Origin: Gammaproteobacteria bacterium
GTDB lineage: Bacteria > Pseudomonadota > Gammaproteobacteria > Eutrophobiales > Eutrophobiaceae
Direction of reading: 5' to 3'
Assembly (NCBI GenBank): GCA_965243205.1
Contig: CBDEUK010000002.1
Location: 704,001 to 768,000, forward strand
Length of the DNA: 64,000 nt
The notes below the pieces were generated by a model that saw only the letters and a program-made list of their open reading frames with translations, was not told where the DNA came from and made no database searches. Shown piece after piece: positions 30,227 through 34,615 of the stretch. Every line of letters begins with the position of its first letter. The stretch's first letter is position 1. Position numbers and translations under genes: made by a program.

Positions 30227-33200
30227 TTAGAACTCTTCCCATTCATCATCACCACCAGCCGAAGCTACTTTCTTCGGTGCTGCACTTGGTGCTGGAGCTT
30301 GAGTTTGGTTAGTTGAAGGTGCGTTATTCCAAGGACGATTTTCAGAACGTCTCTCTTCGTTTTGAAAAGATTCATCATGAGACTCTAAACTAGCACCCGT
30401 TTCACCAACGTTAAATTGAGATACTAATCGGCTTAAACTTGTTGATTGTTCTGACATCGCTTGGCTAGCTGCTGCTGCCTCTTCAACCAATGCGGCGTTT
30501 TGTTGCGTCATGTTATCCATTTCACCAACCGCTTTATTGATTTGTTCAATACCAACGTATTGTTCTTCACCTGCTGCGGCAATTTCAGCAATGATATCGC
30601 TCACTTTCTTAACTGAATTAACAATCTCTTCTAGAGTTTGTCCAGACTCGTCCACTAATCTAGAACCTTCCTCTACTTTATCAACACTATCATTAATCAG
30701 AGTTTTAATTTCTTTTGCCGCCGCTGCACTGCGTTGTGCTAGGTTTCTAACTTCAGAAGCCACAACCGCAAAACCACGACCTTGTTCACCCGCACGTGCC
30801 GCTTCAACTGCAGCGTTTAATGCAAGCAAGTTAGTTTGGAAAGCTATCTCATCAATTACTCCGATAATATCGGCGATTTTCTTACTTGAAGTATTGATTT
30901 CACTCATCGCAGAGACTGCGTTATTAACAACACTGCCGCCTTTTTCTGCTGTTTCTCTAGCATTCGTTGCTAATTGATTGGCTTGTTTCGCATTATCGGC
31001 ATTTTGCTTAACGGTACCGGTCATTTCTTCAACAGTAGAAGCGGTTTCTTCTAATGCCGAAGCTTGTTGTTCCGTACGTGCGCTTAAGTCTGTATTGCCT
31101 TGTGCAATTTCTTTGGCTGATGAATTAATATTGCTCGAAGAATTACGGATGTTATTCACCATATCGAATAATTTTTCTGTCGAGGTATTAACTGCATCTT
31201 TCATCGTTGCAAACTGACCGTGATATTCACCATCCATAGATTGGGTTAAATCGCCTGATGCTAATGCTTCCATAACGCGTGTGCTTTCGTTTAATGGAGC
31301 AACTACCGATTCAATTAGAGAATTGATCGAATTTGCAAGTATTTTCATGAAACCTTCATAATTATCAGGATTCAATCTTTGTCCAAGATCACCCTTACCA
31401 GCCGCTTCAATCAAGTTAGCAATCGCACGTTCAGCTGTTTTCTGTTCGGTAATATCACGCCATTCAACCATGTTTCCAGCATAGTTACCTTCATCATCAA
31501 CAATAGCCGTCGCGTTTACAGAAAAATCTAATGGGCCTACTGTAATATCAGCTTTTGCTGGTAGTCTATTCATATCGGCCAATAAACGACGTTGATGTGA
31601 TGGGTCTTTATGAAATTGATCGATGTTTTGACCAACGAGATTATCGACATCTAAACCGCCCCAAATACTGCGTAATTCTGTTTGACGATTACGCAACATT
31701 TCAATAACAGCAGGATTTGCATAAGTAATATTTAAATCAGAATCACAAATCATAAGATTGGCTTCTGCACCATTAACAGCAGATTGTAAACGCGCTACCT
31801 CAACTTCTCTTTGACGAGCATCTGTCACGTCCTGCCATTCCAAGGTATTACCAATGTAATTACCATCCAAATCGATTTGTGCTGATACCGTTAACGAAAA
31901 CTTCAATCCATTGATTTCGATATCGGTTTGATATGGTAGGTTATTTGGATCGCTTAATAATTTGCGTTGATGTTCTGGGTTCTTATGGAACATATCAATA
32001 CATGCACCCATCACTTTACTTGCATCAAAGCTTGGCCATTGCTCACGGAATTTATCTTCATACTTCTTCAATAAATCAACCGTCGCATCATTGGCATAAG
32101 TGATCTCGAAATCACGATTGATCATGATCACAGGGCTTTGAGCACCATCGATTGCAACCTGTAAACGTGCTGCTTCAAGTTCTTTCTTGCGAACATCGGT
32201 CACGTCCTGCCATTCCAAGGTATTACCAATGTAATTACCGTCCAAATCAATTTGCGCAGAGACCGTTAACGCAAACTTCAATCCATTGATTTCAATATCA
32301 GTTTGATACGGTAGGTTATTTGGATCACTTAATAACTTACGTTGATGTTCTGGATTCTTATGGAACATATCAATGCATGTTCCCATCACTTTGCTCGCAT
32401 CAAAGCCTGGCCATTTTTCACGAAATTTATCTTCATACTTCTTCAATAAATCGACCGTCGCATCATTAGCATATGTGATCTCGAAATCACGATTGATCAT
32501 GATCACAGGGCTTTGAGCACCATCGATTGCAACCTGTAAACGCGCTGCTTCAAGTTCTTTCTTGCGAAGATCAGTTACATCTTGCCACTCTAAGGTGTTA
32601 CCAATGTAATTACCATCCAAATCAATTTGTGCAGAAACAGTTAATGAAAACTTCAATCCATTGATTTCAATGTCGGTTTGATACGGTAAATTATTTGGGT
32701 CACTTAATAATTTACGTTGATGTTCTGGGTTTTTATGGAACATATCAATACAAACACCCATCACTTTACTCGCATCAAAGCTTGGCCATTGCTCACGGAA
32801 TTTATCTTCATACTTTTTAAGTAATTCTATTGTTGATCCATTAGCATAAGTAATCTCGAAATCACGATTGATCATGATCATTGGGCTTTGAGCGCCATCG
32901 ACTGATGCTTGTAAACGAGAAGCTGCTAATTTCTCAGCGCGTAACTCTGTCCCATCGGTTGCATATTTGACGACTTTAAATGGCTTGCCATCCGAATCAA
33001 ACATTGGGTTATAACTGGCATTCAACCAAACCTCTTCGCCTTTTTTATTGAATCGTCGATACTGACCTGATTCAGCTTCGCCTGAAGCAAGACGATCCCA
33101 AAAATCTTTGTATTCAGCACTTTGAGCATATTCTGGATCAACAAACATACGATGATGCTTACCTTGAATTTCTTCTAAACTGTAACCAGTTGTGTCTAGA

Positions 33201-34615
33201 AAATTTTGATTTGCTATGATAATGGTTCCGTCAAGATTAAACTCAATGACTGCTTGAGCTTTACTAATTGCTTCGAGTTTGCCAGAAAAATCTGCATTTT
33301 CAGCTCTTAGCTTTTTAAGCTCTTGTTCCATTTCTTCGACATCACTGTTCTCAACGTTATTTACGTTTTCTTCGCTCATCGTATTTACCTCCGGTGGGTG
33401 TTCATATGCCTCGAGCATTATTTTTGAAACTTTAGTTAATGCTTGAGCCCAAGCATCGTGTATTTGATTCGTCCATGCTTCACCACAGATATCTTGAAGC
33501 ACATTAATTAATGATTCTCTAATTGCAGGGTAATGTGTTTCTACTGCCCCATAACTTTGATACAACTTTCCTAATTCTCGAATAACTTCTATAGAGTCTT
33601 GAGAATTTGGGTCAGATGTATTCACCATACCAACTACATCCATTAATTTTTGTTTTTTCCCTGTTACATAAACATCACCAAATAAATCTTTTAATTCGGG
33701 ATGTTTTTCAAATAAAACTTCATGAAATCGGTCTACTATAATTTCTTTTTGTGCCAATATTTTTTCAAATCCGTCTTCAAGTATTTCATCTTCCTTATCA
33801 TTGTCATTAACACTTGAATCCAAAGACCCTATTTCTGTTTCTACTTGTTCTTCTACTGATTCCATCTGCTCTTCTAGAGCTTCTATTTGTTGCTCATCTT
33901 CAACTGAACCTTCTTCATCCAATAATGGCTCCTCTATTTCAGGCTCATCATTTTGTTCTTCTACTGATTCCATCTGCTCTTCTAGAGCTTCTACTTGTTG
34001 CTCTTCTTCAGCTGCATCTTCTTCATTCAACAATGGCTCTTCTATTGCAGGCTCATCATTTTGTTCTTCTACTGATTCTGTCTGTTCTTCTAAAGCTTCT
34101 ATTTTTTGCTCTTCTTCTAGTGAATCTTCTTCATTCAACATCGACTCTTCTATTTCAGAGTTATCATCTTCAACAATATTGTTATTTTCGATAACTTCTT
34201 TTGATTCATCTTGATTCATCAATTCAATTAAATTGTCGAACGTTATTTTCCAAGCGTCATTAATAGAATCATCATAGTGATCACCCAATAATTCTTGTAT
34301 CGTTTGAAGAAATATCGATTTAATCGCTTGAGCGTGTTCGTTGGTGAATCTAAAGAATGAATATTTTTCCGATATGGACTGTAATTGTTCTTTTATAATA
34401 TCTTTATCACGAATATTCGATATGACTGTATCGATTAGGCCAATAAACTGATGGTTTCTTTCAGCGACATCCATTGTATAAAATATGGATTCGAACTCAG
34501 GATGTTGTTCATATAATTTACTAAATAACACAGACGACAAATCATCTAAGCCTTCTGAAATTATCATAAAGCTAGATTCTATGACATCAAGTTCTGTATT
34601 ATCTTCATTCCACAT
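30227..34615 (-). CDS. Soluble Aer2/McpB-like chemoreceptor: 2 globin domains, acidic repeats, 5 PAS, HAMP, MA domain, C-terminal pentapeptide
   Basis: No TM; globin motifs [16 protein letters not shown] and HYPAI...AW; PAS motifs FHKNPEHQ...[37 protein letters not shown]; ends EWEEF. Confidence 0.92.
31820..32945 (-). repeat. Three near-identical 375-bp (125-aa) tandem PAS-domain repeats; ends approximate
   Basis: Equivalent positions recur at 31826, 32201 and 32576; protein units nearly identical. Confidence 0.92.
33830..34155 (-). repeat. Three 108-bp (36-aa) Glu-rich tandem repeats between the two globin domains; ends approximate
   Basis: TTGTTCTTCTACTGATTC recurs at 33845, 33953 and 34061. 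Confidence 0.9.

Follow-up and report, generated by a model that had tools for sequence, protein, structure and literature searches.

The chemoreceptor gene and its chemotaxis cluster

The window, a stretch of 64,000 nucleotides of gammaproteobacterial DNA, carries on its minus strand a chemotaxis gene cluster built around a large chemoreceptor gene. The genes are listed below in the order in which they are read.

37286-37648, minus strand: cheY, upstream of the chemoreceptor gene
35165-37234, minus strand: cheA, upstream of the chemoreceptor gene
34633-35190, minus strand: cheW, directly upstream of the chemoreceptor gene
30227..34615, minus strand: chemoreceptor gene, intact, 1462 aa, predicted soluble Aer2-family receptor
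29446-30201, minus strand: ParA-like ATPase, downstream of the chemoreceptor gene
29044-29430, minus strand: STAS protein, downstream of the chemoreceptor gene
28464-29021, minus strand: open reading frame of 185 aa, downstream of the chemoreceptor gene
27622-28461, minus strand: cheR, downstream of the chemoreceptor gene
26992-27618, minus strand: cheD, downstream of the chemoreceptor gene
25937-26974, minus strand: cheB, downstream of the chemoreceptor gene
24561-25865, minus strand: second MCP, McpA-like, beyond cheB
24238-24534, minus strand: STAS protein resembling an anti-sigma antagonist, beyond the second MCP
22517-24232, minus strand: receiver-PP2C-HATPase regulator, CrsR/RsbU-like, at the end of the che cluster

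The resulting order, cheY-cheA-cheW-aer2-...-cheR-cheD-cheB-mcp-STAS-RR/PP2C/HATPase, matches that of the S. oneidensis che1 cluster (PMC9855816) and that of the V. vulnificus che2 cluster as given in the available part of PMC10107281. Judged by sequence, the cluster is of the F7 type and ends in a CrsA/CrsR-like pair, which agrees with the F7/Che2 pathway proposed in the original prediction. A search of the organism's own genome for a RuBisCO large subunit found none. The possibility that the start codon is misassigned or the chemoreceptor gene split was rejected, because the frame is open from an ATG 17 nt past the cheW stop and because the globin begins at the same place in homologues.

From its N to its C terminus, the protein consists of a globin, an acidic linker of three 36-aa repeats, a second globin, a PAS domain, four Aer2-type PAS domains, a di-HAMP region, an MA domain, and a terminal EWEEF pentapeptide. 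All of the elements named in the original prediction (globins, linker, PAS, HAMP, MA and EWEEF) lie near where it had placed them.

34196..34615, minus strand: first globin-fold domain (G1), aa 1-140; B10 Phe31, CD1 Phe45, E7 Arg53, F8 Tyr85, G5 Ala95
33809..34195, minus strand: acidic linker, 3 x 36-aa repeats on a 108-nt tandem repeat present three times
33386..33808, minus strand: second globin-fold domain (G2), aa 270-410; B10 His298, CD1 Phe312, E7 Lys320, F8 Tyr352, G5 Tyr362
32921..33298, minus strand: PAS0, aa 440-565; PAS_3 type, 72 bits
32546..32920, minus strand: PAS-heme 1, aa 566-690; Eta-His627, Ibeta-Trp677
32171..32545, minus strand: PAS-heme 2, aa 691-815; Eta-His752, Ibeta-Trp802
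31796..32170, minus strand: PAS-heme 3, aa 816-940; Eta-His877, Ibeta-Trp927
31421..31795, minus strand: PAS-heme 4, aa 941-1065; Eta-His1002, Ibeta-Trp1052; HAMP-proximal PAS of the 'Aer2 core'
31136..31420, minus strand: di-HAMP region, aa ~1066-1160; HAMP_2/HAMP matches and alignment to 3vol
30386..31135, minus strand: MA (kinase-control) domain, aa ~1161-1410; MCPsignal, 188.8 bits
30230..30385, minus strand: flexible C-terminal tail, with the pentapeptide EWEEF at 30230-30244

The Kyte-Doolittle mean over 19 residues peaks at 1.26, so that no transmembrane segment is predicted, as had been anticipated. Profile comparison places the protein among the soluble receptors of the known Aer2 family, again as originally proposed: it scores 1248.4 bits against NCBIfam NF041847 (aerotaxis transducer Aer2, Vibrio type; cut-off 1200) over aa 696-1462. 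Residues 938-1151 align to the PAS-diHAMP structure 3vol of P. aeruginosa Aer2 (E 4e-44) with MCPsignal next, which is the arrangement of an 'Aer2 core' as defined in the accessible text of Stuffle et al. 2022 (PMC10107281). The HAMP_2 match spans aa 1091-1145. Alignment of aa 1102-1401 to residues 216-515 of Tsr gave equal lengths, as expected for the 36H class found in all 130 Aer2-like receptors (Ortega et al., PMC7184735), and the MA domain is assigned to that class by this alignment.

Characterized Aer2 proteins, as far as they are described in the available portions of PMC10107281 and PMC13401364, carry between one and three PAS-heme domains and lack a globin; the original prediction had said much the same. 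Like the present receptor, the tri-PAS-heme VvAer2 and the dual PAS-heme VcAer2 are soluble, carry tandem PAS-heme domains with Eta-His and Ibeta-Trp, a di-HAMP, and a 36H-type MA domain, and are encoded in a che cluster that also contains CheD, another MCP, and a pair resembling RsbU/RsbV. According to the accessible part of PMC10107281, they also share with it the PAS_8 type upstream and PAS_9 last and the EWEEF tail, the pentapeptide of VvAer2 being identical. The receptor differs from both in having four PAS-heme domains, three of them a tandem triplication, instead of two or three, as well as an extra non-Aer2 PAS, two N-terminal globin folds, and a 130-aa acidic repeat linker. Its 1462 aa compare with 807 aa for VvAer2 (construct VvAer2 1-807, from the same partial source). 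P. aeruginosa Aer2/McpB (PaAer2; 3vol, 4hi4) likewise combines PAS-heme, di-HAMP, and kinase control, but it has three N-terminal HAMP domains and a single PAS, where the N-terminus of the present protein is globin-globin-PAS-PAS-PAS-PAS.

The PAS domains

The four Aer2-type PAS domains follow one another with an exact period of 125 aa, and a 375-nt tandem repeat (3 copies, 88% matches) lies beneath them. The motif FHKNPEHQ occurs at aa 626, 751, and 876, its variant FHKDPSHQ at aa 1001, and EW(Q/R)D at aa 676, 801, 926, and 1051. In Aer2 chemoreceptors the Eta-His of the FHKNPAHQ motif coordinates heme, and the Ibeta-Trp stabilizes bound O2. Each of the four domains can be aligned over its full length with the PAS structures of PaAer2 and VcAer2, and FHK(N/D)P.HQ and the Trp then fall in the same columns; Trp677, 802, 927, and 1052 correspond to the Trp of 'QWTD' in PaAer2. 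Equivalents of PaAer2 H234 and W283 (numbering from the 4hi4 alignment) are thus present, H234 being named in the available part of PMC13401364. The expectation of four Aer2-type PAS domains, each with FHK(N/D)P(E/S)HQ and an EW motif, was borne out, Eta-His and Ibeta-Trp being found in every one. Both residues occur in 184 of 191 pooled Aer2-type PAS domains, a number that includes these four. PAS-heme 4 has Val where PaAer2 has Hbeta-Leu. From the ligand residues, we infer that all four domains bind heme and O2.

The upstream PAS-heme domains are of the PAS_8 type and the last is of the PAS_9 type. Copies 1-3 differ mostly by synonymous substitutions (dS 0.47-0.90, dN/dS 0.064-0.067), and a dN/dS of about 0.065 indicates that strong purifying selection keeps each copy of this tandem triplication.

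PAS0 is of a different kind. Its best solved relatives are MmoS (3ewk, E 2e-12) and two structures annotated 'Aerotaxis receptor' (8dik, E 7e-12; 31cj, E 5e-10), which makes FAD-binding PAS domains rather than heme PAS domains its closest kin by sequence; its cofactor is possibly a flavin. The original prediction had labeled it a BdlA-type PAS; no BdlA sequence or model was among the profile and structure matches obtained.

The globin-fold domains, their linker, and their relatives

Scored alone, aa 1-140 and aa 265-410 reach 31.3 and 28.0 bits against Pfam Globin (PF00042; cut-off 22), which upholds the assignment of both N-terminal domains as globins. Against solved globins, G1 gave E 6e-8 and G2 gave E 6e-16 (3s1i), and the predicted structure of G2 superimposes on 3s1i with a Foldseek TM of 0.89 and an rmsd of 1.7 over 128 columns. 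With pLDDT of 91-97 for G1 and mostly 82-95 for G2, both are modeled as 3-on-3 globins. Their best solved relatives belong to the F family: HGbI (3s1i), 3wfw (a Roadblock/LC7 fusion), A. eutrophus flavohemoglobin (1cqx), and Vitreoscilla Hb. In this they differ from HemAT and the S-family globin-coupled sensors, which are also soluble receptors with a globin N-terminal to the MCP domain but whose globin is of the sensor/Protoglobin type (PF11563); no match to PF11563 was obtained for the whole protein or either globin domain with E limits of 1 or 0.01. The accessible part of PMC7475203 places MCP-coupled globins in the S family and lists flavohemoglobins as the chimeric F globins.

The heme pockets of both domains are altered. 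In the alignment to solved globins the F8 column reads Tyr85 in G1 and Tyr352 in G2, and the proximal His is absent from both. In a set of 93 related globin domains, 88 have His at F8 and only this protein's own two have Tyr; among the 300 globin domains of the 150 best representative matches it is His in 285 and Tyr in 3. The Tyr-B10/Gln-E7 distal pair is gone from G1 (Phe31, Arg53) as well as from G2 (His298, Lys320), at least 90% of 24 aligned proteins having Tyr and Gln at the two G2 positions. The G1 pocket string reads FFRFYA against the canonical YFQLHY, G5 Tyr also being lost, while G2 retains CD1 Phe, E11 Leu, and G5 Tyr. A sequencing or assembly error behind the F8 Tyr was rejected: the Logan contigs from X1 and from X3 are in agreement; over the Tyr352 codon, X5, a contig from a different study, shows no difference; and X6, a contig with 96% identity, has the Tyr85 codon too. 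Since the heme-holding His is lost in both, the residues at F8 suggest that G1 and G2 are probably not ordinary gas sensors, and the 'up to seven' sensory domains of the original prediction, taken as heme or gas sensors, are not borne out in that form.

Identity to the closest homologues is 66-84% in PAS0, PAS-heme, and HAMP-MA but 33-47% in G2 and 22-32% in G1; the mean between canonical fused globins is 53%. G1 and G2 have thus changed much more rapidly than the other parts of the chemoreceptor. When 1.84 billion representatives were searched with G1, only distant matches at 16-30% identity were returned, mostly to multi-globin proteins, and no G1-like family emerged from them. The sole similar degenerate domain seen is the first globin of P0021, which is 29% identical to G1 and has Phe at F8.

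A globin fold lacking the proximal His is also found in non-heme globins such as the RsbR N-domain, phycocyanin, and photoglobin; in these the ligand depends on which residue stands at the proximal position, usually Tyr in phycocyanin (PMC8717448). RsbR, too, acts together with STAS partner-switching proteins. Unlike these three, G1 and G2 are F-type heme globins by sequence.

The linker between the globins (aa 136-270) contains 58 D/E and 2 K/R, matched no Pfam family, and is modeled as three helices with low-confidence breaks between them. Its repeats have dN near dS (for repeats 2 versus 3, dS 0.235 and dN 0.193). The repeat part (~33856-34077) is covered by short broken contigs in X1 and X3, and one X1 contig omits 6 nt at 33995, which was taken as repeat assembly noise.

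Relatives were retrieved with the protein's own record left out, and the globin profile rested on a four-row alignment of references. Of the 55 loci fetched, 40 have a globin-Aer2 fusion, and so do about 37 of the 399 genomes sampled from the class; proteins with a globin, in some cases a further PAS, PAS-heme, HAMP, and MA are common in gammaproteobacterial genomes and MAGs, and the architecture class is not rare. The original prediction had called the architecture unrecognized. This holds insofar as a literature search found no description of globin-Aer2 fusions in print, and not insofar as rarity of the class was implied. Like the present receptor, these uncharacterized proteins (among them P0002, P0004/L011 of the same genus, P0021, P0009, L018, L019) have one or more N-terminal F-type globins, PAS and/or one to four Aer2-type PAS-heme domains, HAMP, and MA, and are encoded inside cheA-cheW-...-cheR-cheD-cheB clusters. 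In relatives, fusions of this globin to CheA and CheW occur as well. The relatives' globins keep the flavohemoglobin-type Tyr-B10, Phe-CD1, Gln-E7, Leu-E11, His-F8, and Tyr-G5, a set that G1 and G2 do not keep; for the 66 locus-derived globin domains the B10 and G5 counts are biased because the retrieval pattern used these two positions, F8 and E7 lying outside the patterns. Two globins and four PAS-heme domains together were found in none of the examined relatives, and the open frame described here is the longest seen among them.

Proposed function of the receptor and its N-terminal region

We think it rather likely that the protein is a cytoplasmic Aer2-family F7 receptor in which the PAS hemes sense O2, PAS0 and the globins are accessory, and the globins are not O2 sensors. 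The most likely O2 site is a b-type heme that each of the four Aer2-type PAS domains would carry on its Eta-His. From PAS-heme 4 (aa 941-1065), next to the HAMP, a conformational signal would then pass in line, through the DxT motif and the di-HAMP, to the kinase-control domain, which would regulate the adjacent CheA. The three near-identical upstream copies may act as modulators, like PAS1/PAS2 of the V. cholerae and V. vulnificus proteins; modulator and transmitter roles for the tandem PAS domains of VvAer2 and VcAer2 have been shown in the accessible part of PMC10107281. The same text describes wild-type-like behavior of VvAer2 with its PAS3 Eta-His replaced, so position-based PAS roles may not transfer. 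CheR, CheD, and CheB would use the EWEEF tether in adapting the receptor. Because the che cluster ends in a CrsA/CrsR-like pair, the output is likely to be a stress-sigma partner switch of the RpoS type rather than the flagellar motor, as argued from gene neighborhood. The N-terminal modules would be accessory, PAS0 possibly with a flavin, and G1 would hang on a polyanionic linker of ~130 residues unable to transmit torque. Such a linker, together with the absence of a canonical heme site (Tyr at F8), is why the globins are thought not to be O2 sensors but heme-free or weakly heme-binding modules for modulation, tethering, or localization.

Tyr can ligate heme iron, as in catalase, HasA, Hb M variants, and Mb H93Y, so that loss of the His is no proof of heme loss. 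In an extension of the original prediction, the globins might instead bind heme through a Tyr F8 tyrosinate in G2 and perhaps G1, with His298 (B10) or Lys320 (E7) possibly distal, and the receptor would integrate two heme chemistries, a ferric low-potential heme sensing a signal other than O2 (redox, peroxide, NO, sulfide, or another anion). We regard this as unlikely, and its narrower form, in which G2 alone is remodeled around Tyr352 and distal His298 and its ferric heme signal is compared with that of four ferrous PAS hemes, as likewise unlikely. The three G2 pocket changes come together with CD1 Phe, E11 Leu, and G5 Tyr kept, which resembles remodeling more than random decay and, with the confident model, fits a retained pocket; the fold is kept (model, Foldseek), the Tyr codons recur in independent data, and F8 Tyr is rare yet natural. 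On the other side, G1 is also without B10 Tyr, E7 Gln, and G5 Tyr, the F8 Phe of its counterpart in P0021 is unable to ligate iron, and the faster evolution of both domains fits relaxed constraint. Known non-heme globin families, moreover, differ precisely at the proximal position (PMC8717448). The N-terminal 440 residues could also be evolutionary baggage, drifting ex-heme globins that add nothing to signaling, on a receptor with plain four-PAS Aer2 function. The loss of heme ligands in both globins, the accelerated divergence, and linker repeats with dN near dS would suit such drift, and the largely dispensable PAS1 of VvAer2 (PMC10107281, accessible part) is a precedent for idle N-terminal modules. 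It is nevertheless quite doubtful, as the first 1320 nt of the gene (globin/linker region) run without a stop or frameshift, both globins are modeled with high confidence, and P0021 also keeps a degenerate G1-type first globin; the pLDDT of G1 and its counterpart in P0021 speak against plain decay of the globins. Within G1, the X6 relative shows 6 differences, 4 of them synonymous, a number too small to weigh.

The Aer RHPD residues have a role in FAD binding. In the 8dik alignment FVDP of PAS0 stands opposite them, and the stretch is not conserved; this counts against a receptor that is mainly an Aer-like redox or energy sensor through a PAS0 flavin, with heme-PAS secondary, as the FAD-binding relatives of PAS0 might suggest. 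PAS0 also lies five domains from HAMP, and the HAMP-adjacent Aer2 core PAS is a heme-PAS in every member characterized in the available part of PMC10107281, which makes a flavin-led receptor highly improbable.

Aer2 receptors are a model for in-line PAS-HAMP signaling, and those studied have one to three PAS-heme domains. The natural stack of four described here, with three near-identical copies individually under selection, offers a clean system for the role of extra layers in gain, cooperativity, or array height. The receptor also brings into view a large and unstudied group of Aer2 receptors whose N-terminal globins are of the flavohemoglobin type; within this group it is the exception, having lost the heme-ligating His of both globins. 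Contrast with the canonical P0004/L011 of the same genus would reveal what the globin module contributes to F7 signaling. Should the Tyr-F8 globin still bind heme, it would represent a rare natural case of a sensor globin with a proximal tyrosinate.

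Layout and family membership of the receptor

The gene was located as follows:

30227-34615, minus strand: receptor gene, one uninterrupted frame of 1462 codons, its start ATG 17 nt past the stop of the upstream cheW

Every element listed in the original prediction was found in this frame, and the interpretation placed on them is partly supported. Pfam matched Globin in two stretches, five PAS regions, HAMP_2/HAMP and MCPsignal (188.8 bits), and no membrane segment was predicted (highest Kyte-Doolittle mean over 19-residue windows, 1.26). FHKNPEHQ occurs at aa 626, 751 and 876, FHKDPSHQ at 1001, and EW(Q/R)D at aa 676, 801, 926 and 1051, with a period of exactly 125 residues. 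Tandem Repeats Finder returned a 375-nt unit in three copies (88% matches) and a 108-nt unit, also in three copies, that forms an acidic linker; the C-terminus is EWEEF.

The NCBIfam equivalog for the Vibrio-type aerotaxis transducer Aer2 scored 1248 bits over aa 696-1462 (cut-off 1200), and aa 938-1151 aligned with the PAS-diHAMP structure of P. aeruginosa Aer2 (PaAer2; 3vol) at E 4e-44. Residues 1102-1401 aligned with Tsr 216-515 at equal length, as expected of the 36H class, to which Ortega et al. assign all 130 Aer2-like receptors (PMC7184735). All four repeated PAS domains (PAS-heme 1-4) align end to end with the PAS of PaAer2 (3vol, 4hi4) and with PAS2 of V. cholerae Aer2 (6ceq), and in each the FHK His (Eta-His; His627/752/877/1002) and the EW Trp (Ibeta-Trp; Trp677/802/927/1052) are in register with the solved structures. 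The PaAer2 equivalents, counted along the 4hi4 alignment, are H234 and W283; H234 is described as the heme ligand (PMC13401364), and roles of both residues are described in PMC10107281. Given these alignments and the register of His and Trp, the receptor is an Aer2-family member by the published definition of the "Aer2 core", a PAS-heme domain joined to di-HAMP and kinase control regions (PMC10107281). It also resembles VvAer2, as described in the same paper, in that the upstream PAS copies are of PAS_8 type and the last of PAS_9 type, and in its DxT motifs, which here follow each PAS-heme domain and the preceding PAS of another type (PAS0).

PAS-heme copies 1-3 are 88-93% identical to one another in protein and 85-91% in DNA; their identity to copy 4 is 41%. 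Among copies 1-3, dS is 0.47-0.90 and dN/dS 0.064-0.067, values which indicate that the triplication is not brand new and that purifying selection has held each copy. Within a pool of 121 homologue-search proteins and the globin-bearing frames of a one-genome-per-species scan, 184 of 191 Aer2-type PAS domains have both His and Trp; 14 proteins carry one such domain, 44 two, 21 three and 5 four, the maximum being common to the receptor, locus L018 and homologues P0009, P0011 and P0045. One to three PAS-heme domains are reported for the characterized Aer2 proteins described in PMC10107281 and PMC13401364; four predicted ones would exceed any of these, yet are not unique in sequence space.

The N-terminal globins and the probable signaling mechanism

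Taken alone, the two N-terminal domains scored 31.3 bits (G1, aa 1-140) and 28.0 bits (G2, aa 265-410) against Pfam Globin (cut-off 22), and a Pfam search of both found no Protoglobin match. The solved structures closest to them are of F-family globins: HGbI (3s1i), 3wfw (fused to a Roadblock/LC7 domain), 1cqx (A. eutrophus flavohemoglobin) and Vitreoscilla Hb. An AlphaFold2 model of aa 1-440 has pLDDT 91-97 in G1 and mostly 82-95 in G2, and a Foldseek search with the globin model matched 3s1i (TM 0.89, rmsd 1.7 A, 128 aligned columns). The prediction that these domains would score as globins was borne out by the Pfam scores, the F-family relatives and the modeled fold: G1 and G2 are both real globin folds. 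However, residue alignment to solved globins places Tyr, not His, at the proximal heme-ligand position F8 of both (SEK-Y85-SFF in G1 and GKL-Y352-QSYG in G2, versus RR-H or NK-H in solved globins). Up to seven sensory domains, in a multi-heme gas/redox integrator, had been proposed; the four PAS domains, which keep His and Trp, may well be heme sensors, but both globins lack the proximal His.

To place these residues, 93 related globin domains were aligned: 66 taken from frames at 55 genome loci, the other 27 from 25 homologue-search proteins, the two sets overlapping (P0004, for example, is locus L011). Nearly all have the signature YFQLHY at pocket positions B10/CD1/E7/E11/F8/G5, where G1 has F-F-R-F-Y-A and G2 has H-F-K-L-Y-Y; for the locus set the B10 and G5 columns are biased, as the scan patterns included both, while F8 and E7 lay outside the patterns. 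At F8, 88 domains have His and two, both from this receptor, have Tyr; P0021 has Phe in its first globin, and two fragmentary domains show Thr or a gap. Within A2, an alignment of 24 proteins, conservation is 90% or more for each of His at 352, Tyr at 298 and Gln at 320, and this receptor departs from all three; both globins of the same-genus P0004/L011 (genome G001) are canonical. When 1.84 billion representatives were scanned with G1, the best 150 hits held 300 globin domains, of which 285 have His and three have Tyr at F8. The genome containing the window also encodes a stand-alone 136-aa globin outside it (G000:C2:1668378-1668761, locus L008; Pfam Globin, 65.8 bits) with a canonical pocket (His F8, Tyr B10, Gln E7).

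Sequencing or assembly error as the source of the F8 Tyr was ruled out by independent Logan contigs of public sequencing runs. Those of runs X1 and X3 (probably the source sample) show zero differences at the Tyr codons, a 196-nt contig of X5, from another study, is identical over 33379-33574 including TAT352, and a 96%-identical contig of X6, from a third study, spans TAT85, its six differences all lying elsewhere. Over 33300-34615, four runs from one sample hold 97% of sampled words, and coral reef or coral metagenome runs of other studies (X5, X6) yield short contigs identical or 95-99% alike, so coral-labelled data sets hold near-identical relatives.

Identity between the receptor and its four closest homologues is 66-84% over PAS0, PAS-heme and HAMP-MA, 33-47% over G2 and 22-32% over G1; the mean mutual identity of 22 canonical fused globins is 53%. 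This contrast between domains, together with the F8 Tyr, indicates that the globin modules lost their canonical heme ligands and diverged fast, the remaining receptor having stayed put. Of the 135 residues in the G1-G2 linker, 58 are acidic and two basic; AlphaFold2 models it as three helices with low-confidence breaks between them, and dN is close to dS among its repeats. Helical torque, the means by which Aer2 PAS domains are thought to signal, cannot pass along such a polyanionic tether. For G1, at least, a role as in-line sensor is excluded.

We consider it fairly probable that this is an O2-responsive Aer2 receptor in which PAS-heme 4 would transmit, copies 1-3 would act as modulators, and the N-terminal globins would be accessory modules, either heme-free or weakly heme-binding. 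On the in-line model each PAS would add a density layer to the array above the L2 and L3 layers, which Ortega et al. place 24.5 and 30.1 nm from the baseplate, and by extrapolation the uppermost PAS layer would lie at roughly 45-50 nm. That G1 and G2 instead bind heme through Tyr and sense something other than O2 is unlikely: three G2 pocket residues did change in concert, with the other pocket positions kept, but divergence of the globin domains is accelerated and G1 is far more degenerate. It is more doubtful still that the N-terminus is simply drifting baggage. Dominant redox sensing through a PAS0 flavin is the least probable of these readings, and very much so. PAS0 (aa 440-565; PAS_3, 72 bits) falls outside the Aer2 type. 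Among solved structures it comes closest to FAD-binding PAS domains (MmoS 3ewk, 2e-12; Aer 8dik, 7e-12), with LOV domains next, and the alignment to 8dik does not preserve the RHPD stretch of Aer.

Gene neighborhood and likely output

Chemotaxis genes flank the receptor in the following minus-strand order:

minus strand, ahead of the receptor: cheY, cheA (encoding no globin domain), cheW
28464-30201, minus strand, between aer2 and cheR: ParA-like ATPase, 128-aa STAS protein, unknown 185-aa ORF matching no Pfam or NCBIfam family
minus strand, next: cheR, cheD, cheB
minus strand, after cheB: sensor-less second MCP (434 aa), 98-aa STAS protein, receiver-PP2C-HATPase protein

The ParA-like/STAS/185-aa trio is also found 3' of the same-genus gene in L011, and the ParA-like and STAS genes in L018 and L020; at many other loci a ParA-like gene precedes the receptor instead. 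The layout is of F7/che2 type and resembles that of V. vulnificus, whose locus is described as having Aer2, an additional MCP, CheD and RsbU/RsbV (PMC10107281). It also matches S. oneidensis che1, which ends in a CrsR/CrsA pair reported to control RpoS by partner switching (PMC9855816). Judging from the gene neighborhood, the system more likely acts on a stress-sigma switch than on the flagellar motor. With two more CheA-like genes and 11 MCP-signal matches over cut-off, the genome has several such systems, of which this is one.

Other gene sets in the window are:

250-4732: PEP-CTERM/XrtA-type exopolysaccharide export set, ahead of the hopanoid genes
also ahead of the hopanoid genes: type II secretion genes gspD/E/F/L
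12433-20310, plus strand: hopanoid set with a squalene synthase-like gene, squalene-hopene cyclase (795 bits), HpnG-like phosphorylase and HpnN transporter (859 bits)

Globin-Aer2 fusions in other genomes

Of the 120 homologues listed, 23 carry an N-terminal globin that aligns over 90 residues or more, after which come PAS and/or PAS-heme, HAMP and MA; P0004 and P0021 have two globins, and P0009 and P0011 read globin, three PAS-heme, two PAS, PAS-heme. A locus scan with one genome per species returned 55 loci, 40 of them with a globin...MA fusion bearing one to four PAS-heme domains. These come mostly from gammaproteobacterial MAGs (labels Ectothiorhodospiraceae, Thiohalobacter, Thioalkalispiraceae, Sulfuriflexus and Chromatiales), others from Calditrichia and Latescibacterota, and adjoin cheA (34/40), cheW (34/40), cheR (36/40) and cheD (32/40). 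When 400 genomes were drawn evenly from the class, a globin profile at E<=1e-15 matched 82; in 37 besides the window's own the match lay within a frame open for 550 aa or more, counted by frame length alone, and the window's frame, of 1463 codons, was the longest listed.

Globins also occur in neighboring signaling proteins. In related F7 clusters (L032:2041-4473, L063:237-2747, L022:2698-5322), a CheA of 811-875 aa has a Pfam Globin domain (53-57 bits) with the canonical YFQLHY pocket between Hpt and the dimerization domain, a fusion for which no description was found in the literature searched. CheW proteins of ~350 aa whose C-terminal part is a Globin domain (59-66 bits) are encoded at L026:3014-4063 and L039:4810-5850, and another, supported by our own HMM only, at L025:4874-5923; the globin-bearing cheW genes lie directly upstream of a globin-Aer2 gene. 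At L022:6625-8145, three canonical globin domains in tandem open a frame that continues past the contig end. Soluble MCPs of 1478-1584 aa with 8-10 tandem PAS0-type (PAS_3) copies (P0005, by its source name Algicola sagamiensis, P0006, P0012 and P0014), some with one Aer2-type PAS as the last PAS, are another unexplored multi-PAS receptor class.

No printed description of globin-Aer2 fusions was found in the literature searched, subscription-only papers and supplements lying outside it. The nearest published item is an in-silico note on a Corallococcus MCP with PAS and a truncated globin (Bac_globin), which as described belongs to another globin family and is not an Aer2 (PMC6194562). The architecture had been put forward as one not recognized as described; the class itself is common in genomes. 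Of the Aer2 proteins examined, the receptor is the largest and the most modular. The globin-Aer2 class is common but unstudied, and within it this receptor is exceptional in having the proximal His replaced in both globins.
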